Shown: positions 3,556-57,566 of the stretch, one piece after another | How positions within the stretch are numbered: position 1 is the stretch's first letter | Layout: every line of letters starts with the position of its first letter | Notes under the pieces: generated by a model | Seen by the model: the letters and a program-made list of their open reading frames with translations, nothing else | What the model was told of the DNA's origin: nothing | The model's database searches: none | NCBI GenBank assembly: GCA_902780585.1 | Contig: CACZGA010000002.1 | Span: 126-64,125 of the forward strand | Source: an uncultured Erysipelotrichaceae bacterium | Lineage (GTDB): Bacteria > Bacillota_I > Bacilli_A > RF39 > UBA660 | Length of the DNA stretch: 64,000 bases | Direction: 5' to 3' | Program-made: the position numbers and the translations under genes

Positions 3556-3793
3556 ATCATCTCCCCAAAAAAAATTATTATAAACATAAGGACGAACAAT
3601 CGCGGTACCACCTTATTTTATAATAATTAATATTATACACTCAAATAGTTAACGCCTATATACGTTTATACCTACATATCGATATAAAAGTTCAGAAGCC
3701 ATACAGAATAAATTGTTTATACTTCCTTTCACCTAACGAAGTTCTCTAATAATAAACGACATCATTCCGCTCTTCATCACAACATTTAAATAC
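3556..3793 (-). promoter_or_regulatory. T-box leader (tRNA-sensing riboswitch) of metG
   Basis: Minus strand reads AAGGTGGTACCGCG (plus 3601-3614), matching the T-box core GGUGGUACCGCG. A hairpin and a U8 tract follow, ahead of the metG SD. Upstream there are AGAGA and GGTGAAAG stem-I-like elements and a candidate AUG specifier (..CUGUAUGGC..). A TTGCAT-17-TATTAT promoter sits at 3828-3800. Confidence 0.75.
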
Positions 3794-14781: not shown

Positions 14782-14796
14782 AATATTCACCTAAAT

Positions 14797-14878
14797 AAAA
14801 AGTGCACATGAAAGGAGGACTTTAAGGCTGCTATTTTCCAATCCTGACCTGTTTCAGCCACTTTCATTGCACGAGATT
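14797..14878 (-). ncRNA. ffs: signal recognition particle RNA, small (4.5S-like, no Alu domain)
   Basis: Minus strand reads GUGCAAUGAAAGUGGCUGAAACAGGUCAGGAUUGGAAAAUAGCAGCCUUAAAGUCCUCCUUUCAUGUGCAC followed by a U5 tract. CAGGUCAGG..GGAA..AGCAGCC matches the conserved helix-8 motif of E. coli 4.5S RNA (CAGGUCAGGUCCGGAAGGAAGCAGCC). The two ends pair. Confidence 0.7.
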
Positions 14879-14972
14879 ATTTTATTATAAAAAAAAAGAA
14901 AAGTAAACAATTATTACTATAAAACAGTTAGATTATATATTAATATACTGAAAAAAATTAAATTCTTATCTA

Positions 14973-14988
14973 TGTTTCACGTGAAACA
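14973..14988. promoter_or_regulatory. parS-like site 1
   Basis: TGTTTCACGTGAAACA, a perfect 16-bp palindrome that fits the ParB/Spo0J parS consensus TGTTNCACGTGAAACA. Confidence 0.75.
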
Positions 14989-15012
14989 TTACACTTCTAC
15001 TTCTATTCAAAT

Positions 15013-15028
15013 TATTTCCCGGGAAATA
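15013..15028. promoter_or_regulatory. NBS-like (Noc-binding-site) palindrome 1
   Basis: TATTTCCCGGGAAATA. The core ATTTCCCGGGAAAT equals the published B. subtilis Noc-binding-site consensus. Confidence 0.7.
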
Positions 15029-15046
15029 TTTTAATAATTCTACCTA

Positions 15047-15062
15047 TGTTCCACGTGAAACA
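15047..15062. promoter_or_regulatory. parS-like site 2
   Basis: TGTTCCACGTGAAACA, identical to the canonical B. subtilis parS. Confidence 0.75.
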
Positions 15063-15086
15063 TTGTGTTTCAACTTCTATTCAGAT

Positions 15087-15102
15087 TATTTCCCGGGAAA
15101 TA
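15087..15102. promoter_or_regulatory. NBS-like palindrome 2
   Basis: TATTTCCCGGGAAATA, exact. Confidence 0.7.
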
Positions 15103-15121
15103 TTTTTAGTACTTCTACCTA

Positions 15122-15137
15122 TGTTTCACGTGTAACA
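15122..15137. promoter_or_regulatory. parS-like site 3 (degenerate)
   Basis: TGTTTCACGTGTAACA, one mismatch to consensus (GAAACA to GTAACA). Confidence 0.5.
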
Positions 15138-15161
15138 TTGTGTTTCTACTTCTATTCAGAT

Positions 15162-15177
15162 TATTTCCCGGGAAATA
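15162..15177. promoter_or_regulatory. NBS-like palindrome 3
   Basis: TATTTCCCGGGAAATA, exact. Confidence 0.7.
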
Positions 15178-15196
15178 TTTTTAGTACTTTTACCTA

Positions 15197-15212
15197 TGTT
15201 CCACGTGAAACA
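15197..15212. promoter_or_regulatory. parS-like site 4
   Basis: TGTTCCACGTGAAACA. Confidence 0.75.
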
Positions 15213-15236
15213 TTGTGCTTCTACTTCTATTTAGAT

Positions 15237-15252
15237 TATTTTCCGGGAAATA
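15237..15252. promoter_or_regulatory. NBS-like palindrome 4 (degenerate)
   Basis: TATTTTCCGGGAAATA, one C-to-T change in the left half-site. Confidence 0.5.
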
Positions 15253-15271
15253 TATTTAGTACTTTTACCTA

Positions 15272-15287
15272 TGTTTCACGTGAAACA
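15272..15287. promoter_or_regulatory. parS-like site 5
   Basis: TGTTTCACGTGAAACA. Confidence 0.75.
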
Positions 15288-15311
15288 TTGTACTTCTACT
15301 TCTATTCAGAT

Positions 15312-15327
15312 TATTTCCCGGGAAATA
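15312..15327. promoter_or_regulatory. NBS-like palindrome 5
   Basis: TATTTCCCGGGAAATA, exact. Confidence 0.7.
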
Positions 15328-15345
15328 TTTTAGTACTTCTACCTA

Positions 15346-15361
15346 TGTTCCACGTGAAACA
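15346..15361. promoter_or_regulatory. parS-like site 6
   Basis: TGTTCCACGTGAAACA. Confidence 0.75.
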
Positions 15362-15385
15362 TTATACTTCTACTTTTATTCAGAT

Positions 15386-15401
15386 TATTTTCCGGGAAAT
15401 A
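15386..15401. promoter_or_regulatory. NBS-like palindrome 6 (degenerate)
   Basis: TATTTTCCGGGAAATA, one C-to-T change. Confidence 0.5.
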
Positions 15402-15420
15402 TTTTTTGTACTTCTACCTA

Positions 15421-15436
15421 TGTTTCACGTGAAACA
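15421..15436. promoter_or_regulatory. parS-like site 7
   Basis: TGTTTCACGTGAAACA. Confidence 0.75.
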
Positions 15437-15460
15437 TTATACTTCTACTTCTATTTAGAT

Positions 15461-15476
15461 TATTTCCCGGGAAATA
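15461..15476. promoter_or_regulatory. NBS-like palindrome 7
   Basis: TATTTCCCGGGAAATA, exact. Confidence 0.7.
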
Positions 15477-15495
15477 TTTTTAGTACTTCTACCTA

Positions 15496-15511
15496 TGTTC
15501 CACGTGAAACA
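15496..15511. promoter_or_regulatory. parS-like site 8
   Basis: TGTTCCACGTGAAACA. Confidence 0.75.
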
Positions 15512-15535
15512 TTATATTTCTACTTCTATTTAGAT

Positions 15536-15551
15536 TATTTCCCGGGAAATA
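15536..15551. promoter_or_regulatory. NBS-like palindrome 8
   Basis: TATTTCCCGGGAAATA, exact. Confidence 0.7.
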
Positions 15552-15570
15552 TTTTTAGTACTTCTACCTA

Positions 15571-15586
15571 TGTTCCACGTGAAACA
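15571..15586. promoter_or_regulatory. parS-like site 9
   Basis: TGTTCCACGTGAAACA. Confidence 0.75.
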
Positions 15587-15610
15587 TTGTATTTCAACTT
15601 CTATTTAGAT

Positions 15611-15626
15611 TATTTCCCGGGAAATA
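15611..15626. promoter_or_regulatory. NBS-like palindrome 9
   Basis: TATTTCCCGGGAAATA, exact. The array ends just after it. Confidence 0.7.
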
Positions 15627-21357: not shown

Positions 21358-21388
21358 CACAAAAAAATAGTTAAAATTAACTATTTTT
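21358..21388 (-). terminator. hairpin plus U-tract overlapping the comK-like stop codon
   Basis: Minus strand reads AAAAAUAGUUAA-UUUU-AACUAU followed by U6-7. AT-rich 7-bp stem, so only moderate confidence. Confidence 0.5.
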
Positions 21389-21823
21389 ATGATTTCTCAG
21401 AATCAAATCTAACCTAGATGCTCTAGATAATTGATTTTCCATAGTACGATAAGAACAATTAACTATAATTTCTCTATTATTATCAAAAATAACCTTAGTA
21501 TTATCATATTCTACTCTTTCAATTTTCTTTACTCTTTTTAAAGAAATCCATACACAATCATCAGCTAAAGGCGATGTTGTAGGAAAAACAATTAAATTAT
21601 TCTCATCCTCAACTACAATAGGTACTTTATATTCAGCCCCTAAAATATCTCTAGCTCCATTTTTCCTTCCTTCATAAGTACTACCAAAGTACTTACAACT
21701 ATCCTCCATAATTTTAAAAGGTCTTTCTGAAATAATATAATTTGTTTCATCTTCATATACTATACTAGAATCTCCTTCATTAGGTACAATTGCTAAAGTA
21801 CCCCTACTAATTTCATAATTCAT
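21377..21823 (-). CDS. comK: ComK-family competence transcription factor homologue (short, 148 aa)
   Basis: Aligns by eye along B. subtilis ComK. YEISRGTLAIVPNE matches YEVNGATIAVLPEE. SCKYFGSTYEGRKNG matches SCRFFGSSYAGRKAG. KVPIVVE..LIVFPTTSP..CVWIS matches KPPIMVD..FLFPTLSS..CGWIS. SYRTMENQ matches SYNSFENQ. Strong GGGGGA SD. Confidence 0.8.
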   Translation of the reverse strand: MNYEISRGTLAIVPNEGDSSIVYEDETNYIISERPFKIMEDSCKYFGSTYEGRKNGARDILGAEYKVPIVVEDENNLIVFPTTSPLADDCVWISLKRVKKIERVEYDNTKVIFDNNREIIVNCSYRTMENQLSRASRLDLILRNHKNS

Positions 21824-31534: not shown

Positions 31535-31563
31535 TTGAAAGATATTAAAAAATACTTTATAAT
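31535..31563 (+). promoter_or_regulatory. sigma-A-type promoter of the noc-like gene
   Basis: TTGAAA (31535-31540), 17-bp spacer, TATAAT (31558-31563). Confidence 0.6.
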
Positions 31564-31604
31564 GTTAACATAGGAAACTAAAGAGAATAAAGTGAGGGAT
31601 TGTT

Positions 31605-32915
31605 ATGTACCCAGACGAGAAAGACGAAGTTGTACAATTATACTTGGATGATATAATTCCTAATAGATTTCAACCACGTGAAATATTTGATGAAAAAGCA
31701 TTAAAAGAACTCGCTGTATCAATTAAAGAACATGGTGTTATACAACCTATTATAGTAAGAAAAGTAAATGAAAAATATGAAATAATTGCTGGAGAAAGAA
31801 GATATAAAGCCTCAGCTCTAGCAGGACTTACAAAAATTCCAGCAATAATTAGAGACTTAGATGATAAAGAAAGTTCAAAAGTAGCATTACTTGAGAACTT
31901 ACAAAGAAAGAACTTAAACCCAATTGAAGAAGCTAGAACATTCCAAAAGATACTTGAACTTGATGAAATGACACAAGAAGATTTAGCTAAAACAATGGGA
32001 AAAAGTCAATCTGCAATTGCTAATAAAATACGTTTGTTATCACTACCTGATGAAATTCAAAGTGCTTTACTAAAAGAAGAAATATCAGAAAGACACGCTA
32101 GAACACTATTAAATCTACCAAATGCCGAAAAGCAAAAAGAAATGCTACAAAGAGTAATTAATGAAAAAATGAGTGTCAGAGCTTTAGAAAATGAAATTAA
32201 AATGATGCAACCAGTAGAAACAAGAAATGAAATAGCCTCAAGTGATTTCGTAAATAGTAATCCACTAATGCCAACTGCAGAATTACCAAAAGACACCTCA
32301 GATTATGGAAAGGTTACAATAGCCCCACCAAAAGGAGAAGATCAATCTATGCCTCATAAATTTATTAATTATGGAGAATTAGAAGAAGATGCTGATGACG
32401 GAGGAACAACATTCGATATGCCACCATCAGTAACATCAATAGATATTGATAAAATGAAAGAAACAACCACAGATATCAATAAAGTCCCTGCTAAAGGAGC
32501 AGATTTAGATAGTTTATTGAATTTAGGTAATCCAACATCTTCAATTCCAACTAATCAATTTATTACTCCAGCAGAAAAGATAGTTAAAACAGATTTAGGA
32601 GAAGATAGAATAGATAATTCAGATTATTTTAAAATGCCTGATTACAATACAGGTAATAATGAATCTCAAATGATTAATTCGGTATCTAACAACATGTTCT
32701 TATCAAGCCCACCACCAAAAGAAGAATTACCAAAAACAGAACTTGCGCCACTTAAATCATTTGAGGCAGAACCTACAACTTATACATTAGAGCAAGCAAC
32801 AAATAAAATGAGAGAGCTTATTAAAGATTTAAAAGAACATGGTGTTGAAATAAATGCTGATGAGATGGATTTTGATACATCATACCAAATAATAATTAAA
32901 ATTGATAAAAAGTAG
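31605..32915 (+). CDS. noc: Noc-like ParB-family protein (nucleoid-occlusion-protein homologue with long internal low-complexity insertion)
   Basis: 436 aa. ParB N-domain (IIPNRFQPRE, HGVIQPIIVR, AGERRYKAS). HTH region GKSQSAIANKIRLL..ISERHARTLL matches B. subtilis Noc (GKGQSTIANKLRLL..ITERHARAL) rather than Spo0J. C-terminal ..EMDFDTSYQIIIKIDKK resembles the Noc C-terminus (..EEFEEYIQLTIRIPK). rsmG-noc-parA-parB synteny. Confidence 0.75.
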   Translation: MYPDEKDEVVQLYLDDIIPNRFQPREIFDEKALKELAVSIKEHGVIQPIIVRKVNEKYEIIAGERRYKASALAGLTKIPAIIRDLDDKESSKVALLENLQRKNLNPIEEARTFQKILELDEMTQEDLAKTMGKSQSAIANKIRLLSLPDEIQSALLKEEISERHARTLLNLPNAEKQKEMLQRVINEKMSVRALENEIKMMQPVETRNEIASSDFVNSNPLMPTAELPKDTSDYGKVTIAPPKGEDQSMPHKFINYGELEEDADDGGTTFDMPPSVTSIDIDKMKETTTDINKVPAKGADLDSLLNLGNPTSSIPTNQFITPAEKIVKTDLGEDRIDNSDYFKMPDYNTGNNESQMINSVSNNMFLSSPPPKEELPKTELAPLKSFEAEPTTYTLEQATNKMRELIKDLKEHGVEINADEMDFDTSYQIIIKIDKK

Positions 32916-33001: not shown

Positions 33002-33790
33002 ATGGGAAAGGCAATATCATTAGTAAATCAAAAAGGCGGAGTAGGAAAAACGACTAGTAGCATTAATCTTTCAGCATCCTTAGCTGTATTAGGTAAAAAA
33101 GTACTACTAATTGACCTAGATCCTCAAGGAAATACCACAACAGGAGTAGGTATTAATAAGGGGGAAATAGAAAGAAGTATATATGATGTGCTAATAGGTG
33201 AATGTAAAATAACAGAAGCTATAATCAAGACAAGATATAAAAACTTATATGTTATTCCCGCTACCATTAATTTAGCAGGATTAGAGTATGAACTTATAGA
33301 AAAGAGTAATAATGATACTAGTTTTAAAAAAGGCGAACAATTAAAAATTAGTTTAATGGATATAAAAGATAGTTTTGACTATATCATTTTAGATTGTCCA
33401 CCTTCTTTATCATTAATAACAACAAATGCCTTAGCGGCATCTAATTCAGTAATAATTCCAGTACAATGCGAATTCTTTGCTCTAGAAGGAATTACTCAAT
33501 TATTAAAAACAATAATGCTTTCTCAAAAAACATTAAATCCTACTCTAGATATTGAAGGCGTTTTATTAACAATGCTAGATTCTAGAACTAATTTAGGCTT
33601 TGAAGTAGTAGAAGATATAAGAAAGTTCTTTAAAGAAAAAGTATATAATACAATAATTCCAAGATTAGTAAGATTAACAGAAGCTCCATCTCATGGAGAA
33701 CCAATTATAGCTTATGATCCAAAAAGTAGAGGATCAGAAGCCTATTTAAACCTAGCAAAGGAAGTGATTGAAAGAAATGGAAAACAATAA
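33002..33790 (+). CDS. parA: chromosome-partitioning ATPase ParA/Soj
   Basis: Deviant Walker A NQKGGVGKTTSS, DLDPQGN, ILDCPPSL; 262 aa. Confidence 0.95.
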   Translation: MGKAISLVNQKGGVGKTTSSINLSASLAVLGKKVLLIDLDPQGNTTTGVGINKGEIERSIYDVLIGECKITEAIIKTRYKNLYVIPATINLAGLEYELIEKSNNDTSFKKGEQLKISLMDIKDSFDYIILDCPPSLSLITTNALAASNSVIIPVQCEFFALEGITQLLKTIMLSQKTLNPTLDIEGVLLTMLDSRTNLGFEVVEDIRKFFKEKVYNTIIPRLVRLTEAPSHGEPIIAYDPKSRGSEAYLNLAKEVIERNGKQ

Positions 33791-34682
33791 TACCACAGAA
33801 AGTGGAATACCTAAAAGAAGAGCTTTAGGTAGAGGCCTAGAAGAATTATTTAACAGTGAAGTCTTAGATTACAACACTGTAGAAGAAAAAATAGTAAGTG
33901 ATTCAACAAAAGATGAAGTTACTATGGTTAAATTAAATGAATTAAGAAGCAATCCATACCAACCAAGAAAAGTTTTTGATGAACAAGCTCTAGAAGAATT
34001 AGCAAGTTCAATCAAAGAACATGGTGTAATTCAACCCATAATTGTAAAAAAATCTATCAAAGGCTATGAAATAATAGCTGGTGAAAGAAGAGCTAAAGCC
34101 TCACAATTAGCAGGTTTAGAAGAAATCCCAGCCATTATCAGAGATTTTAATGATACTCAAATGATGGAAATAGCCTTACTTGAAAATCTACAAAGAGAAA
34201 ATTTAAGTGCTATTGAAGAAGCTAATGCTTATAAAAAATTGCAAGAAACTTTATCTCTAACCCAAGAAGATTTAGCTAAAAGACTAGGTAAAAGTAGAAG
34301 CCATATCACAAATATGTTAGGTTTGTTAACACTACCTCAAGATATTCAAGAAGAAGTAAACAACAAAAACATCTCAATGGGACATGCTAGAGTACTTAGC
34401 AAATTAGATGATATAGCTCAACAAGAAAAACTAGCTAAAAAAGTAATTGAAGATGGTATAAGCGTTAGAAAATTAGAAGAATTAAGCCAAGAAAAAGAAA
34501 TTATAAAAACTAATCCTCAAAGAAATAAAACTCCAAATGAATATAGTTATTTACAAGAAGAATTAAGTGAAAAATTAGGTACAAAAGTAGTAATAAAGAA
34601 AAATAAGATAGAAATAAATTTTGTAAATACAAATGATTTAAATAGATTATTAGACTATATGAATATTGGAGTTGGAAAATAA
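33777..34682 (+). CDS. parB: chromosome-partitioning protein ParB/Spo0J
   Basis: GLEELF box, NPYQPRKVFD, HGVIQPIIVK, AGERRAKAS. HTH GKSRSHITNMLGLL..ISMGHARVL is ParB-type (KSR, GHxR). Start ATG 33777; the ORF track begins at TTG 33768. Confidence 0.92.
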   Translation: MENNNTTESGIPKRRALGRGLEELFNSEVLDYNTVEEKIVSDSTKDEVTMVKLNELRSNPYQPRKVFDEQALEELASSIKEHGVIQPIIVKKSIKGYEIIAGERRAKASQLAGLEEIPAIIRDFNDTQMMEIALLENLQRENLSAIEEANAYKKLQETLSLTQEDLAKRLGKSRSHITNMLGLLTLPQDIQEEVNNKNISMGHARVLSKLDDIAQQEKLAKKVIEDGISVRKLEELSQEKEIIKTNPQRNKTPNEYSYLQEELSEKLGTKVVIKKNKIEINFVNTNDLNRLLDYMNIGVGK

Positions 34683-37279: not shown

Positions 37280-37306
37280 AAAGTATTTCATTGAAATACT
37301 TTTTTT
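37278..37306. terminator. bidirectional terminator between abgT-like and AraC-like genes
   Basis: AAAAAGUAUUU-CAUUG-AAAUACUUUUUUU, with A- and T-tracts on both sides. The flanking genes converge. Confidence 0.65.
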
Positions 37307-37769
37307 ATTTAAATATAGATAATTTAATAACACTATCCTTACTAGGAATATTTCTCCTGTAAGCTTCAACCTTCTTAAAAAATAATTCTAAAAATATAAC
37401 ATTCTTTTGTATTAAATAGTATGTATCCTCATCAATCGAAGGATCATAATTTAAATATAATCTATATATAGTAGGAGATACCCCAATTAATTTATGAAAC
37501 ATCTCTGAATAGTATTCTTGAGAATAAAAGCCATAACACAAAGAAACATTTAATATTGAAACAGAATCCCTTAAAATATCTAAAGAACTAAATATACGTT
37601 TATAATTCATGTAATCAATTATAGTTGTTCCTATTTCTTTTTTAAATAATCTCATAAGATAGTCTTTATTAAAATGAAAGGTATTAGACAGCTCGTTAAT
37701 AGTAACTTTTCGAAATAGATTTAAATCTAAATAATCTAATATATTTAAAACCAAAGGATTAGAAAACAT
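37305..37769 (-). CDS. AraC/XylS-family HTH protein (DNA-binding domain only, 154 aa)
   Basis: Two HTH units: VTINELSNTFHFNKDYLMRLFKKEIG and ILNVSLCYGFYSQEYYSEMFHKLIGVSPTIYR. No sensor domain. Confidence 0.75.
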   Translation of the reverse strand: MFSNPLVLNILDYLDLNLFRKVTINELSNTFHFNKDYLMRLFKKEIGTTIIDYMNYKRIFSSLDILRDSVSILNVSLCYGFYSQEYYSEMFHKLIGVSPTIYRLYLNYDPSIDEDTYYLIQKNVIFLELFFKKVEAYRRNIPSKDSVIKLSIFK

Positions 37770-37863
37770 ATTACCACCAATTTAATAATAACATAAAAAG
37801 TCGTTATTGTTTAAACGAAATATAAAAATGCATGGTTTAATAGAAAACGAAAGGAGGGGAAAT

Positions 37864-39216
37864 ATGAATAATTCAAGTTGGATATCTGAAAGAGAATACA
37901 AAAAATCATTAACAGAAGTAGATGTAACAAAAAAAGTAGAAAAATCTGGTATACCAATTCTTTCATCAGGTAATAAAATCTACATTGATGATCAAGAAAG
38001 ACATAATTTGGTAATAGGATCTACCGGTAGTGGAAAAACGCAAACAATTATTCTTCCGACATTAAAACTATCTATGAATGCTGAAGAATCATTCTTAGTA
38101 AATGATCCACAAGGAGAATTGTATGGAAAAGTAGCAAATTATCTAAAAGAAAAAGATTATAACATAATTGTCTTGGATTTTGAAAATCCCTTACTAGGTA
38201 ATAATTGGAATCCTTTAACACATCCATATAATGTGTATAAAAATGGGGATTACGATATAGCTTTAGAATTAATTGAAGAATTAGGATATTACATATTCAT
38301 GAGTCAAGATTACAAAGCTATTGACCCATTCTGGATTAATTCTACCATTAATTACTTTACTGGCTTAGTTCTACATCTATTCGAATCTGCTAAAGAAGAA
38401 GAGATAAATCTTTCTAGTGTTGGTGCCTTAGCCAACCAATTACAATCAAAAGAAACAAGTGAAAAGTTTCTAGAAAAATTACCAAAAAATAGTGCAATTT
38501 ATTTAAAAATGGTAGGTGTATTAAAAGCTCCATCTGAAACAAAAGGTAGTATTTTATCAGTTTTCAACCAAAAAATTGAAAGATACCTATCAAGAAAGAA
38601 TCTCTCAAGCATGTTAGCAAAATCTGATTTTGAAATGAAAGATCTACTAACCAAGAAAACAGCTATCTTTGTGGTTAGTGGGATGTCTTCATTTGGAAAT
38701 AATTTAATTCCATTATTAACTAATCAAATTGTTAATGCTGCTATTATTTATGGTAAAAACAAAAAAAGATTAAATATCTTACTAGACGAATTTGATTCGA
38801 TGATACCAATAAAAGATTTTTCAGGAATTCTAAATAGAAGTAGAGGTTTAAACATAAGATTTACAGTAGTTATTCAAAGTTATGCTCACTTATTAAATAT
38901 GTATTCTAAAGAAGAACTAGAAATATTAAAGATGTGTTTCGGTAATATTATTTACTTACTATCAGAAGATAAATATACCTTAGAAGAAATATCTGAGCGC
39001 TGTGGAACCCATATAGTAAATGATAGAGAAGAGCCTCTAATAAGTATGGCCGAACTAAAGACTTTAAAGGTATTTGAAGCAATTGTTTTAACTACAAGAA
39101 TGTTGCCTTTAAAAACTAAATTATTACCTGATTATAAAATAAATTGGGGTTATGAAATAGAAAAAGCCGATATTCCAGAAAGAAAAAATGAAGAAGTTCA
39201 TATCTACGAATTTTAA
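37864..39216 (+). CDS. VirD4/TraG-like (type IV coupling protein family) P-loop ATPase, soluble, no TM anchor
   Basis: Walker A HNLVIGSTGSGKTQTIILP. Walker B/TraG-D_C-like block LNILLDEFDSMIPIKDFSGILNRSRGLNIRFTVVIQSYAHL. Start ATG 37864 (AGGAGG SD). No hydrophobic N-terminus. Confidence 0.7.
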   Translation: MNNSSWISEREYKKSLTEVDVTKKVEKSGIPILSSGNKIYIDDQERHNLVIGSTGSGKTQTIILPTLKLSMNAEESFLVNDPQGELYGKVANYLKEKDYNIIVLDFENPLLGNNWNPLTHPYNVYKNGDYDIALELIEELGYYIFMSQDYKAIDPFWINSTINYFTGLVLHLFESAKEEEINLSSVGALANQLQSKETSEKFLEKLPKNSAIYLKMVGVLKAPSETKGSILSVFNQKIERYLSRKNLSSMLAKSDFEMKDLLTKKTAIFVVSGMSSFGNNLIPLLTNQIVNAAIIYGKNKKRLNILLDEFDSMIPIKDFSGILNRSRGLNIRFTVVIQSYAHLLNMYSKEELEILKMCFGNIIYLLSEDKYTLEEISERCGTHIVNDREEPLISMAELKTLKVFEAIVLTTRMLPLKTKLLPDYKINWGYEIEKADIPERKNEEVHIYEF

Positions 39217-42417: not shown

Positions 42418-42628
42418 AAAAATGTCTAAAAGATATTGAGCTTTTGTTAAAACCGACTAAGTAACAATAAGGGAATTCGGAACTAGTCAACTGGTGTTGA
42501 ATGCCTATCATAGAATAGGAATCCTAAAAGTTGAGTATGAATACCCACCTAAAATAAGCGGGTTTTGCCGCTTCAATCTTTAGACATTTTTCTTTTGCAC
42601 TAAAAACGTATATTATACGTTTTTTATT
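42418..42628 (+). ncRNA. candidate structured small RNA (6S-RNA-like architecture; identity unconfirmed)
   Basis: Own extended -10 (TGCTATAAT, 42409-42417). The 5' arm AAUGUCUAAAAGAUAUUGAGC (42421-) pairs with the 3' arm GCUUCAAUCUUUAGACAUU (-42598), closing an about 150-nt interior that holds internal hairpins (CCUAU-CAUAGA-AUAGG, AGCGG-GUUUUG-CCGCU). A U-tract follows, then a second hairpin AAAAACGUA-UAUUA-UACGUUUUU (42602-42624). No ORF. Confidence 0.45.
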
Positions 42629-44145: not shown

Positions 44146-45507
44146 ATGCCAACAAGAGTTTTACCTAATAATATAGAAGCCGAGGAGTCAGTTTTAGGAG
44201 CATGTTTCTTATCAAAATATGCCCTTCAAAAAGCTGCGGAAAACCTTTCGGAAGAAGCTTTCTATAGTGAAAAGAATAGCAAAATTTTTGCAACAATGTT
44301 AGCTTTATTAGAAGAAAAAACACCAATTGATATCACAACAGTAACTAGTTATTTAAAAAAGAAAAATGAATTATCAGAAGTAGGTGGAGTAGAATACTTA
44401 ACTGAAGTATTAAATTATGTTCCTACAGCTGGCAATATAGACTATTATATACAGAGTGTTGAAGAGGCTGCAATTTTAAGAAACTTAATTCAAACAGCTG
44501 AAGAAATAGCTCAAGAAGGCTATAATCCTGATGAATCTGTAAATGAAATATTAGATAATTCTGAAAAGAAAATATTAGGAATAGTAAAAAATCGTAAGTC
44601 TAGTGAATTTAGAACAATAAAAGATATTCTAGCTAAAACACAATCTGACTTAGAAAGATTATCTGAAAACAAAGGTGAAATTACTGGTCTTGCAACGGGC
44701 TGGTATGACTTTGATAGGCTTACTACAGGGCTACATCCTAATGAATTTATAATAATTGCAGCTAGACCAGCTATGGGTAAAACTGCTTTTGCCTTAAATC
44801 TAGCTACACATGTTGCTATGACGCAAGATAAATCTGTTGCACTATTTAACTTAGAGATGAGTGCTGAGCAATTAGCCCAACGTATTTTATCATCCCTAGG
44901 CCAAATAGATGGATTTAAACTAAGAACAGGTAACCTAATTAATCAAGATTGGAAAAGAATAAATGAAGCTGTATCCCAACTTGCTAATACAAACTTAGTA
45001 ATGGATGATACCCCTGGTATTACTATAGGTGAAATAAGAGCTAAATGTCGTAGAATTGCTAGTAGTGAAAAAGGTTTAGCCCTAATTGTAATTGACTACT
45101 TACAATTAATTTCAGGTGGTAAAAACTATGGTGCTAATCGTCAGCAAGAAGTATCAGACATTTCTCGTAGCTTAAAGACCCTAGCTATGGAATTAGGGGT
45201 ACCAGTAATTGCTTTATCCCAATTATCCAGAGGTGTTGAGGCTCGTGAAGATAAAAGACCGCTAATGAGTGACTTAAGAGAGTCTGGATCTATTGAACAA
45301 GATGCCGATATAGTAGCGTTCTTATATCGTGATGATTACTATAATAAAGAAGCCAGAACAGAAGATAATACTAGTATCAGCGAATTAATTATAGGAAAAC
45401 ATCGTAATGGACCTACAGCAACTATAGAATTACTATTTAAAAAGAACACTTCAACATTTGTTAATATAAGAAAAGAAAAGAATAAGGAGGGACCTCCTAG
45501 TGAGTAA
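44146..45507 (+). CDS. dnaB: replicative DNA helicase
   Basis: PNNIEAEESVLGA N-terminus, Walker A ARPAMGKTAFALN, IVIDYLQLI, RecA-like C-terminal domain; 453 aa. Confidence 0.96.
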   Translation: MPTRVLPNNIEAEESVLGACFLSKYALQKAAENLSEEAFYSEKNSKIFATMLALLEEKTPIDITTVTSYLKKKNELSEVGGVEYLTEVLNYVPTAGNIDYYIQSVEEAAILRNLIQTAEEIAQEGYNPDESVNEILDNSEKKILGIVKNRKSSEFRTIKDILAKTQSDLERLSENKGEITGLATGWYDFDRLTTGLHPNEFIIIAARPAMGKTAFALNLATHVAMTQDKSVALFNLEMSAEQLAQRILSSLGQIDGFKLRTGNLINQDWKRINEAVSQLANTNLVMDDTPGITIGEIRAKCRRIASSEKGLALIVIDYLQLISGGKNYGANRQQEVSDISRSLKTLAMELGVPVIALSQLSRGVEAREDKRPLMSDLRESGSIEQDADIVAFLYRDDYYNKEARTEDNTSISELIIGKHRNGPTATIELLFKKNTSTFVNIRKEKNKEGPPSE

Positions 45508-46993
45508 AAGAAAAGAATTATTGATTATTTTATTGATTCTTATTGTACCCGTAGTAACAGGTTTCACTAAAGCAAACTCATCTCCTAAAACAGTATATAG
45601 AGTATACTTAAAAGGACAGTCTTTGGGAACAATTGAATCAAAAAAATCCTTTGAAAACTACATTGACAAAAAACAAGAAGAAATAAAGAAAAAGTACAAT
45701 GTAAAAAAAGTATACGCTCCAGTAGATTTAGATATTGTTAAAGAGATTACTTTTGAAGGTACTATAAAATCAAATGAAGAAATATATAATGAAATAAAGG
45801 ATATATCACCATTTACTATTAATGGTTATACTATAAAAATTAAAGGTTTAGATTCAAAAGACAGTGAAGGAAAAACAATTAAGGGAACTACTCAAAAAAT
45901 ATATGTCCTTGAAAAATCAACATTTACAACTGCTGTTGAAAAAACAGCTAAATCATTTATAACGCAAGAAGCCTATGAAGCTTATGCTAATGATACCCAA
46001 AAAGAAATAGTAGATACTGGAACTATAATTGAAAATATCTACATAAAAAATAAAATAACAATAAAGAAAGATAAAATACCCGTAGATAAAACAATCTATA
46101 CAACCGAAGAAGACTTAAGTAAATACTTGCTTTTTGGAACAACCGAAGCCCAAGCAACGTATACAATACAAGACGGAGACACAATACCCGATGTAGCATT
46201 TAATAATAAGATATCAATAGAAGAATTCTTAATTGCTAATCCAAATCTACAAGGGGAAAACAGTTTATTATCTCCTGGACAAATTGTTACGCTAGGAATA
46301 TTAAAACCTCAGATAAGCGTTGTAGAAGAAGATCATGTTGTTAAAGACGAAGAACAAAACTATGCAACAAAGACGGAAGAAGATCCTAATCAATATACAA
46401 ATTATTCAGTAGTTAAACAAGCTGGAATGAAAGGTTTAAATCGCGTTACTCAGAAAATTCAAAAAGTCAATGGCGAAACAGTATCTCTAGTAGGTATTTC
46501 TCAAGAAGTATTAAAAGAACCTGTAGAAGAAATTGTTGTTAAGGGTACTAAAAAACGTGAATCTAGTTGGAGTGGAGGATATGGTGATTTAATTGTCACT
46601 AAAGGTATGTTTGGTTGGCCAGCAACCTGTTCAACAATATCTAGTCCTTTTGGTTGGCGTTGGGGTGCACTACACGATGGAACAGATATTGCTGGATGTG
46701 GATATGGTTCAAATATATTTGCTGCTGAATCAGGTGAAGTATACACCGTATCATATAAGTACGATAATGGACAATACATTGTAATTAAACATGATAATGG
46801 ATACTATACTATGTACGCTCATTTGTGTAGTGGCTGTACATATGTAAAAGTAGGAGATAGGGTACAGAGAGGACAACCAATTGGTGGTATGGGACAAACT
46901 GGATACGCAACAGGAGTTCACTTACATTTTTCTATTTGGACAGGCCCACCTTATTATGGTGGAAGAGCTCTAAACCCAATGAGTTTCTATTAA
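45500..46993 (+). CDS. secreted/membrane-anchored M23-family peptidoglycan metalloendopeptidase with LysM and G5-like domains
   Basis: N-terminal TM/signal. LysM (YTIQDGDTIPDVAFNNKISIEEFLIANP). G5-like (VVKQAGMKGLNRVTQKIQKVNGE). M23 (HDGTDIAG..., GYATGVHLHFSI). GTG start 45500 after a GGAGGGA SD, overlapping the dnaB stop. Confidence 0.85.
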   Translation: MSKRKELLIILLILIVPVVTGFTKANSSPKTVYRVYLKGQSLGTIESKKSFENYIDKKQEEIKKKYNVKKVYAPVDLDIVKEITFEGTIKSNEEIYNEIKDISPFTINGYTIKIKGLDSKDSEGKTIKGTTQKIYVLEKSTFTTAVEKTAKSFITQEAYEAYANDTQKEIVDTGTIIENIYIKNKITIKKDKIPVDKTIYTTEEDLSKYLLFGTTEAQATYTIQDGDTIPDVAFNNKISIEEFLIANPNLQGENSLLSPGQIVTLGILKPQISVVEEDHVVKDEEQNYATKTEEDPNQYTNYSVVKQAGMKGLNRVTQKIQKVNGETVSLVGISQEVLKEPVEEIVVKGTKKRESSWSGGYGDLIVTKGMFGWPATCSTISSPFGWRWGALHDGTDIAGCGYGSNIFAAESGEVYTVSYKYDNGQYIVIKHDNGYYTMYAHLCSGCTYVKVGDRVQRGQPIGGMGQTGYATGVHLHFSIWTGPPYYGGRALNPMSFY

Positions 46994-57510: not shown

Positions 57511-57566
57511 AAGTACGCATTGAATTACTATGACAAATATTTTGTCATGGCGGAAGGAGAGATAAT

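Follow-up and report, generated by a model that had tools for sequence, protein, structure and literature searches.

A Noc subfamily without an N-terminal membrane-targeting helix and with a long, acidic, disordered linker in uncultured gut and rumen Bacilli

The closest described relatives of the protein reported here are the canonical Noc proteins of Bacillus subtilis (283 aa) and G. thermoleovorans (PDB 7nfu, 7ng0, 7ol9, 6y93). In the G. thermoleovorans structure, the N-terminus is composed of a membrane-targeting helix (alpha1), a conserved, autoinhibitory helix (alpha2) and an 8-residue loop; both helices contact a protein surface, the Noc N-domain, and the binding of cytidine triphosphate (CTP) has been proposed to free the N-terminal helix for membrane binding (PMC8429893). 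According to Adams et al., the N-terminal motif (aa 1–15) is extremely conserved and is predicted as an amphipathic helix in all homologs examined (PMC4331003). With respect to the recognition of Noc-binding sites (NBS), Jalal et al. assigned DNA specificity to four residues (Q173, K179, K184, and R201 in Caulobacter numbering), among which Q173 and R201 switch specificity, one permissive lysine at position 179 or 184 being enough for NBS (PMC7383237). We analyzed a stretch of 64,000 nucleotides (hereafter, the window) from an uncultured Erysipelotrichaceae bacterium (contig CACZGA010000002.1), in which the open reading frame (ORF) 31605..32915 on the + strand encodes a protein originally predicted to be a Noc homolog devoid of the membrane-targeting helix. 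Sequence, tree, and fold comparisons place this protein in the Noc clade, within a large, previously unrecognized Noc subfamily of uncultured gut and rumen Bacilli.

The window protein shares with canonical Noc a CTP-binding N-domain, an NBS-type helix-turn-helix (HTH), a C-terminal domain, and synteny. The two are 48–52% identical over 200 aa, and the identical NBS consensus, ATTTCCCGGGAAAT, is found in the window genome. It differs from canonical Noc by being ~21 residues short at the N-terminus (alpha1, alpha2, and the loop), by a linker that is 191 aa long and acidic (−18), whereas the canonical one is 13 aa long and basic (+5 to +6), and by a serine in place of the lysine at position 184. 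Moreover, the NBS, scattered in the canonical system, are here clustered and interleaved with parS, and a motif resembling the membrane-targeting sequence, which is N-terminal in canonical Noc, sits inside the linker. The gene and the domains of its product are as follows.

31605..32915, + strand: gene of the Noc clade, long-linker and short-N-terminus subfamily (436 aa; Noc profile, PDB matches, tree, and fold search)
31626..31904, + strand: ParB/Noc N-terminal CTP-binding domain, residues 8–100 (PF02195, E = 1e−35; alignment to Noc structures; AlphaFold pLDDT, the predicted local distance difference test, 75–85)
31908..32207, + strand: HTH DNA-binding domain, residues 102–201, with Q135/K141/S146/R163 (PF17762, E = 1.5e−33; residue mapping)
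32208..32780, + strand: acidic, intrinsically disordered linker, residues 202–392, net charge −18, replacing the 13-aa basic linker of canonical Noc
32781..32912, + strand: Noc-type C-terminal domain, residues 393–436, one helix and two strands (AlphaFold and profiles; dimerization presumed)

Among NCBIfam models, the best match of the protein was the Noc model TIGR04285, with 290 bits (241 bits for the neighboring ParB). Its best PDB matches were the Nocs of G. thermoleovorans (210 bits) and B. subtilis (190 bits), followed by B. subtilis Spo0J (179 bits), an order that is reversed for the neighboring ParB (Spo0J, 214 bits; Noc, 167 bits). A Foldseek search with the AlphaFold model retrieved Noc 7nfu in first position (E = 4e−22, 52% identity). 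We also built a neighbor-joining tree (49 taxa, 200 columns, 200 bootstraps) in which 23 long-linker proteins were set against 12 canonical Nocs and 14 ParBs, of which one is that of the window, 10 belong to related genomes, and 3 are PDB entries. Noc and ParB were split in 100% of bootstraps, with the window protein outside the ParB clade, and the long-linker group was monophyletic in 98%. The chromosomal ParB/Spo0J, which is encoded two genes downstream and whose parS sites are interleaved with the NBS, has the same fold and the same CTP-clamp motifs, but it is separated from the window protein not only by this split but also by its R/M/T/G specificity residues, its N-terminal LGRGL motif, and its ParB_C domain. 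Two points weigh against the assignment to Noc: the curated cut-off of TIGR04285 (315 bits) is missed, whether with the full protein or after removal of the linker (299 bits), and the canonical Nocs in the tree come only from Bacillaceae, which limits the placement. Nevertheless, profile, PDB and fold searches, tree, specificity residues, and synteny agree with the Noc homology put forward in the original prediction, alignment to the two families and phylogeny both setting the clade with Noc, and the protein is, on this evidence, a Noc-clade member and not a second ParB. Because the N-terminal helix is absent and the curated cut-off is missed, we file it as a Noc variant by descent, not as a canonical Noc. 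Public sources label the members of the subfamily only as "ParB/RepB/Spo0J family partition protein".

The CTP-binding motifs are intact (Q47, GERR 63–66, and ENLQR 97–101, aligned to Q68, G86–R89, and N121 of B. subtilis Noc), and the corresponding residues are invariant in 60 homologs. At the positions that specify NBS (173, 179, 184, and 201), the window protein has Q135, K141, S146, and R163, so that three of the four match Noc, whereas R, M, T, and G occupy these positions in the neighboring ParB; the pattern QK(x)R holds in the subfamily, as seen in the best 150 representatives of clusters at 50% identity. The traits of parS-type ParBs, namely the LGRGL ParA-binding motif, R173, and G201, are not found in the window Noc-like protein. 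These residues, together with the consensus NBS present in the window, make NBS recognition very probable, in line with the initial proposal. As for the C-terminus, the full protein aligned with positions 1–200 of TIGR04285 only, while the linker-deleted protein aligned with the entire profile; the C-terminal 44 aa alone matched only this model (positions 216–255, E = 3e−4), and a hidden Markov model of the window C-terminal domain recovered 116 of 120 canonical Nocs. For these reasons, the C-terminal domain is considered homologous to that of canonical Noc, as its resemblance had already suggested. In the AlphaFold model, it consists of a helix (395–411) and two strands (416–422 and 427–433).

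The 436-aa product begins with MYPDEKDEVVQLYLDDIIPNRFQPRE, as originally read, and starts ~21 residues later than the solved Noc structures: residue 23 of G. thermoleovorans Noc corresponds to its residue 4, and residue 26 of B. subtilis Noc (N-terminal sequence MKHSFSRFFGIGEKEQE, also given as MKHSFSRFFGIG; 283 aa in the retrieved sequence, as stated in the original prediction) to its residue 5. About 17 residues do precede the ParB N-domain, as first described, but only six of them are acidic. Residues 2–11 have a mean hydrophobicity of 0.01 and a charge of −3. This short N-terminus is common to the relatives. In 32 of 32 related genomes, an upstream stop lies at most 17 codons away, and 8–16 acidic or polar residues stand before the first strand; the 120 closest homologs start with MYPDxKDEVV. 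Nearly all of the best 150 representatives have 13–17 residues before IPNRFQPR and a length of 335–720 aa, the few exceptions being fragments or likely mis-called starts. The median number of residues before IPNRFQPR is 15 in the subfamily versus 46 in canonical Noc, and the net charge of residues 2–12 is −1.9 in the long-linker subfamily versus +1.9 in 98 canonical Nocs. The combination of a short N-terminus with a long linker thus extends to the 32 related genomes, to more than 230 homologs, and to the best 150 representatives. As judged from these sequences, the N-terminal membrane-targeting helix is truly absent, as had been proposed for the window protein, and its absence is conserved across the clade, holding for all 32 genomes and all 150 representatives. 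The subfamily contradicts the reported universality of the Noc N-terminal helix (PMC4331003), and our literature search found no description of a Noc without it.

The start itself and the neighboring genes are defined by the following features.

31593..31599, + strand: in-frame TGA (31593–95) overlapping the ribosome-binding site GAGGGA (31594–99), which jointly set the N-terminus
31535..31563, + strand: promoter-like TTGAAA-17-TATAAT (11 of 12 consensus matches; a consensus match only)
33002..34682, + strand: soj/parA (33002–33790) and spo0J/parB (33768–34682), the ParB retaining the LGRGL ParA-binding motif and parS-type residues

The TGA lies four codons before the ATG, and the intervening GGG, ATT, and GTT are not start codons, which leaves no room for a longer N-terminus, as had been pointed out; GAGGGA, five bases 5' of the ORF, is a plausible ribosome-binding site. 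The 100-nt gap between rsmG and the Noc-like ORF does not encode an amphipathic peptide in any of its three frames. Given this gap and the upstream stops in all 32 genomes, a mis-called start or a sequencing error was ruled out. We also rejected an alternative genetic code with read-through of TGA, as the upstream stops of relatives are TAA or TAG and translation with table 11 leaves the housekeeping ORFs intact. The gene order in the window, which is the classical one of the origin region, is mnmE-mnmG-rsmG-[Noc-like gene]-soj-spo0J-mscS-DUF951, and the synteny rsmG(gidB)-noc-soj-spo0J is present in the window and in the 32 related genomes, with no extra conserved gene in the neighborhood. 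The longer order mnmG-rsmG-noc-parA-parB(-mscS)-DUF951 is largely kept in the loci of these genomes (L001–L032) that span these genes, and identity to the window across them is 72–92% for Soj/ParA, 60–79% for ParB, and 44–69% for the Noc variant.

In the alignment with B. subtilis Noc, residues 202–392 replace a 13-residue basic linker, EQGKRKPKPRRKA, and are indeed inserted between the HTH and the C-terminal segment, as first noticed. Their description as a low-complexity insertion stands in part only, as the stretch is not of low complexity. Composition is biased (P/D/E/N/S/T, 54% vs. 34%), the stretch is predicted to be disordered, and it has no canonical counterpart, but its Shannon entropy of 3.93 bits is the same as that of the folded domains, with a single 12-mer below a SEG-like threshold. 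In an AlphaFold2 model of the window protein built with a 60-sequence alignment, the N-domain, HTH, and C-terminal domain were confident, while pLDDT was mostly below 50 over residues 202–394, which supports disorder; the sole predicted helix of the linker covers five residues (282–286). The model of a distant member, P0223, behaved in the same way, with a disordered linker. Among 149 representatives, linker length has a median of 227 aa (range 34–471), and the linker is net acidic in all 149 (median −27), compared with a canonical median of 13 aa and a charge of +5. Short islands and motifs stand out in this region.

32355..32387, + strand: motif copy 1, HKFINYGELEE, residues 251–261 (at least 90% conserved in close homologs; enrichment and position-specific scoring matrix tests)
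32439..32480, + strand: conserved island IDIDKMKETTTDIN, residues 279–292 (the most widespread linker island; short predicted helix)
32496..32540, + strand: conserved island GADLDSLLNLGNPTS, residues 298–312 (subclade-specific; no likeness to the ParA-binding motif of ParB)
32553..32585, + strand: motif copy 2, degenerate, NQFITPAEKIV, residues 317–327 (relatives have FKFIT at the same place)
32616..32642, + strand: conserved island NSDYFKMPD, residues 338–346 (conservation in homologs)

The islands are at least 90% conserved in close homologs and partly conserved at 44–69% identity, with the patterns FVNxNPLxPTAELPxDTSxYGKVTIAPP, KFINYGE, IDxxKxKExTTDIN, GADLDSLLNLG, QFITPAEKIVKTD, and NSDYFKxPD. 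Most of them are subclade-specific, and residues 367–392 form a variable stretch that aligns poorly. The linker matched no Pfam or NCBIfam family. We considered whether GADLDSLLNLG duplicates the ParA-binding motif of ParB and ruled this out (P = 0.36). The long linker is shared by the 32 genomes, by more than 230 homologs, and by nearly all of the best 150 representatives; what was taken for an insertion is not specific to one genome. It is better described as an acidic, disordered linker that carries short conserved motifs, and it defines a large subfamily.

A HeliQuest-type 11-mer scan of the window protein alone found no cationic amphipathic helix in its linker. When hydrophobic and basic segments were sought across the whole family, a recurrent N-[KR]-F-[FI]-[NTQ]-[FPY]-[LG]-E-[DE]-E motif emerged (consensus NKFFNFLEDEE; hereafter, the KFF motif), present in one to three copies per linker and essentially never outside it. 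In its strict form, the motif occurs in 90 of 111 distant members, where shuffled linkers predict 0.1, and its relaxed form is carried by 111 of the 120 close homologs and by 103 of the 111 distant ones (1.2–1.3 expected). A profile for which "FF" in linkers served as the only seed has the consensus NNKFFNFLEDEE. Along B. subtilis Noc, this profile has its best match at residue 5 (FSRFFGIGEKEQ, 15.0 bits; 4.4 bits for the second best), with P = 0.0015 against shuffles and rank 4 of 272 for the score of the flanks only, and the segment picked in this way (FSRFFGLGEKE) comprises the membrane-targeting motif and the beginning of alpha2. Copy 1 of the window protein has a hydrophobic moment of 0.46 and a hydrophobicity of 0.44, to be compared with 0.43–0.46 and 0.52–0.59 for the canonical helix. 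The membrane anchor of Noc may thus have moved into the linker, and a membrane-binding segment elsewhere in the window protein, that is, the linker motif, may be counted as a live possibility.

Several observations weigh against a relocated anchor. The net charge of the KFF motif is 0 to −1 (0 for copy 1) in acidic surroundings, whereas that of the canonical helix is +2, and given this missing positive charge, binding of the motif to anionic membranes is doubtful. The likeness covers ~9 residues and was spotted after the fact. In the reverse test, a canonical N-terminal profile scanned over the window protein had its best match at residue 250, which was not significant (P = 0.78), because this profile was built from near-identical Bacillaceae sequences. 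AlphaFold gave the KFF motif a pLDDT of ~42–50 in the window protein and P0223, with no helix and no confident structure. Finally, no copy was detectable in 97 of 148 cluster representatives, and one member, P0240 (279 aa), has a short linker and neither the N-terminal helix nor the KFF motif.

As a separate observation, P0240, P0170, and P0222 all have short acidic linkers (~35–110 aa), with no KFF motif and no canonical anchor.

The window also contains the probable binding sites of the protein, gathered in a single array.

14973..15625, no strand assigned: probable loading sites, nine NBS and nine parS (consensus matches, ~75 bp period; between the signal recognition particle (SRP) RNA gene and gyrA, near the origin of replication, oriC)

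Nine sites in the window match the B. subtilis NBS consensus, ATTTCCCGGGAAAT, with at most one mismatch (0.21 expected), all within 15014–15625, and these NBS (ATTTYCCGGGAAAT) strictly alternate, with a period of ~75 bp, with nine parS sites (TGTTYCACGTGAAACA, 14973–15586). The array is located 16 kb from the Noc-like gene and ~8 kb from dnaA. A scan of metagenomes for parS within 15–35 bp of NBS returned at least 120 loci; among those listed, at least 81 have a GyrA 70–91% identical to the window GyrA, at least 82 a tadA-like gene, and at least 78 a dnaX gene adjoining the cluster. The arrangement dnaX-tadA-[mixed cluster]-gyrA recurs in relatives, on at least 80 of their metagenome contigs. 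Given these shared GyrA, tadA-like, and dnaX neighbors, the composite parS/NBS cluster is, as read from these contigs, a conserved feature of the clade at the dnaX-tadA-gyrA position. Isolated NBS outside arrays also occur in relatives. No noc gene was present within the retrieved flanks of the metagenome array loci, so the association of the long-linker Noc with the array rests on the window and on the similarity of GyrA, TadA, and DnaX. Our literature search found no report of interleaved parS and NBS sites. Beside the array, we observed a small SRP RNA gene (14789–14883, − strand; Rfam, above gathering score), directly adjacent, and a 131-aa ORF (15063–15458, + strand) wholly inside the repeats, which is almost certainly a repeat artifact and not a gene.

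A reading that would accommodate these data, and to which we give roughly even chances, is that of a functional Noc-clade CTP clamp that has lost its N-terminal module and exerts its effector activity through linker motifs, the likeliest being a relocated membrane-targeting and autoinhibitory peptide. By analogy with the CTP-clamp mechanism of ParB and Noc (PMC8429893), the protein would nucleate at the NBS interleaved with parS beside oriC; upon CTP binding, its N-domains would close, and the clamp would slide onto flanking origin-proximal DNA. The alternation of NBS and parS would bring ParB and Noc clamps next to one another at loading, and both would occupy this DNA. The effector activity would then be delivered through linker motifs, most likely the repeated [KR]-F-[FI]-N-[FY]-[LG]-E-[DE]-E, represented by HKFINYGELEE in the window protein. 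This motif would be the canonical membrane-targeting and autoinhibitory peptide, shifted from the N-terminus into the linker, and its weak, multivalent contacts would either tether origin-proximal DNA to the membrane or bind back onto the N-domain. RNase E offers a precedent, as its membrane-targeting sequence, a short amphipathic element, is embedded in a disordered scaffold, although this protein is unrelated and provides a functional analogy only (PMC4435900, PMC12594526). Similarly, RicO tethers the origin to the membrane with an amphipathic helix, and Firmicutes use dedicated tethers of this kind (bioRxiv 10.64898/2026.03.06.710092); RicO binds DNA near the origin and connects it to the membrane, and as an unrelated protein, it may likewise be taken as a functional analog only.

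Two other explanations assume a functional protein. The clamp may have abandoned membrane tethering altogether, its polyanionic linker serving as a spacer, an entropic brush, or a modulator of condensates for clamps that load next to ParB at the composite parS/NBS centromere. The protein would then contribute to origin organization, segregation, or replication control instead of classical occlusion. The loss of the N-terminal helix throughout the subfamily, the consistently acidic linker (the opposite of the canonical basic one), the KFF motif lacking positive charge and predicted structure, and the many members without this motif all point in this direction, as does the interleaving of NBS with parS beside oriC, an arrangement conserved in relatives. 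Moreover, a Noc is already known to control replication initiation in S. aureus (PMC5540599), where it is described as canonical; with the window array ~8 kb from dnaA, it may offer a precedent for an origin-directed role beyond the occlusion of division sites. However, a pure spacer would not retain islands at least 90% conserved, the KFF motif, ~100-fold commoner than in shuffles, is similar to the canonical membrane motif, and the isolated NBS outside arrays in relatives fit a chromosome-wide role, so that this explanation appears possible, if on the improbable side. The conserved islands lead to a different proposal, in which KFINYGE, IDxxKxKExTTDIN, DLDSLLNLG, and DYFKxPD dock partners, such as a divisome component, DnaA, SMC, or a membrane protein, and division is blocked or the origin anchored through the partner and not through lipid. 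Several distinct islands that keep their order in a disordered region are the usual signature of short linear motifs; they show the turnover between subclades that is seen with partner-binding motifs, and the canonical alpha1 and alpha2 also bind protein, the Noc N-domain (PMC8429893). Yet the islands match neither the ParA-binding motif of ParB nor any Pfam or NCBIfam family, and the neighborhood holds no conserved extra gene; we hold partner docking to be rather unlikely. In E. coli, SlmA achieves nucleoid occlusion by binding DNA at specific sites and blocking division over it through contact with a protein, FtsZ. It has an unrelated TetR fold and would be a functional analog relevant to partner recruitment only.

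One may finally ask whether the architecture reflects a mis-called start, a sequencing error, or a degenerating ParB paralog with a drifting middle. The TIGR04285 score under the curated cut-off and the variable, poorly aligning stretch 367–392 could be read in this way. However, the same architecture and upstream stop recur in 32 independent genomes, the design is common to more than 230 homologs and 150 cluster representatives, the frame is intact with invariant catalytic and DNA-binding residues, the gene has its own promoter-like site and ribosome-binding site, and the linker islands are conserved. Artifact or gene decay, exceedingly improbable on these grounds, is excluded by the present results.

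Returning to the relocated effector peptide, a bolder extension of it, which we regard as unlikely, would see ParB and Noc share, in this lineage, one composite centromere of strictly alternating parS and NBS beside oriC. Noc would have turned from an inhibitor of division acting chromosome-wide into an origin-anchoring or origin-organizing partner of ParB, with internal multivalent motifs that tether the origin to the membrane or to a partner, the membrane-targeting peptide having been transposed from the terminus into a disordered region.

Other features of the window were recorded in passing. A ComK-family gene (21377–21823, − strand; PF06338, E = 3e−44) lies between recF and dnaN in the core cluster of the replication origin. 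Between abgT and ychF, a TraG/VirD4-type type IV coupling protein (37807–39216, + strand) is encoded beside an AraC-type regulator (37305–37769, − strand), with no other conjugation genes visible near it (37305–39216). Rfam matches above gathering score correspond to a T-box leader (3585–3789, − strand), 6S RNA (42420–42590, + strand), and an L31 ribosomal-protein leader (57528–57559, + strand). Downstream of dnaB, the window encodes an M23 peptidase with a G5 domain (45500–46993, + strand), and the host, although low in G+C in a Mollicutes-like manner, therefore probably has a cell wall with peptidoglycan.

Noc is currently modeled around an N-terminal amphipathic helix reported as conserved in all homologs examined (PMC4331003). 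The subfamily described here departs from this model by the absence of the helix, by the opposite charge of its linker, and by a linker motif that resembles the lost helix. As its members score under the cut-off of the Noc model and are labeled as generic ParBs, surveys of Noc distribution miss them. The subfamily also constitutes a natural experiment on whether membrane tethering is essential to Noc, whether an anchor can function from an internal, disordered position, and what role Noc plays with origin sites interleaved with parS.

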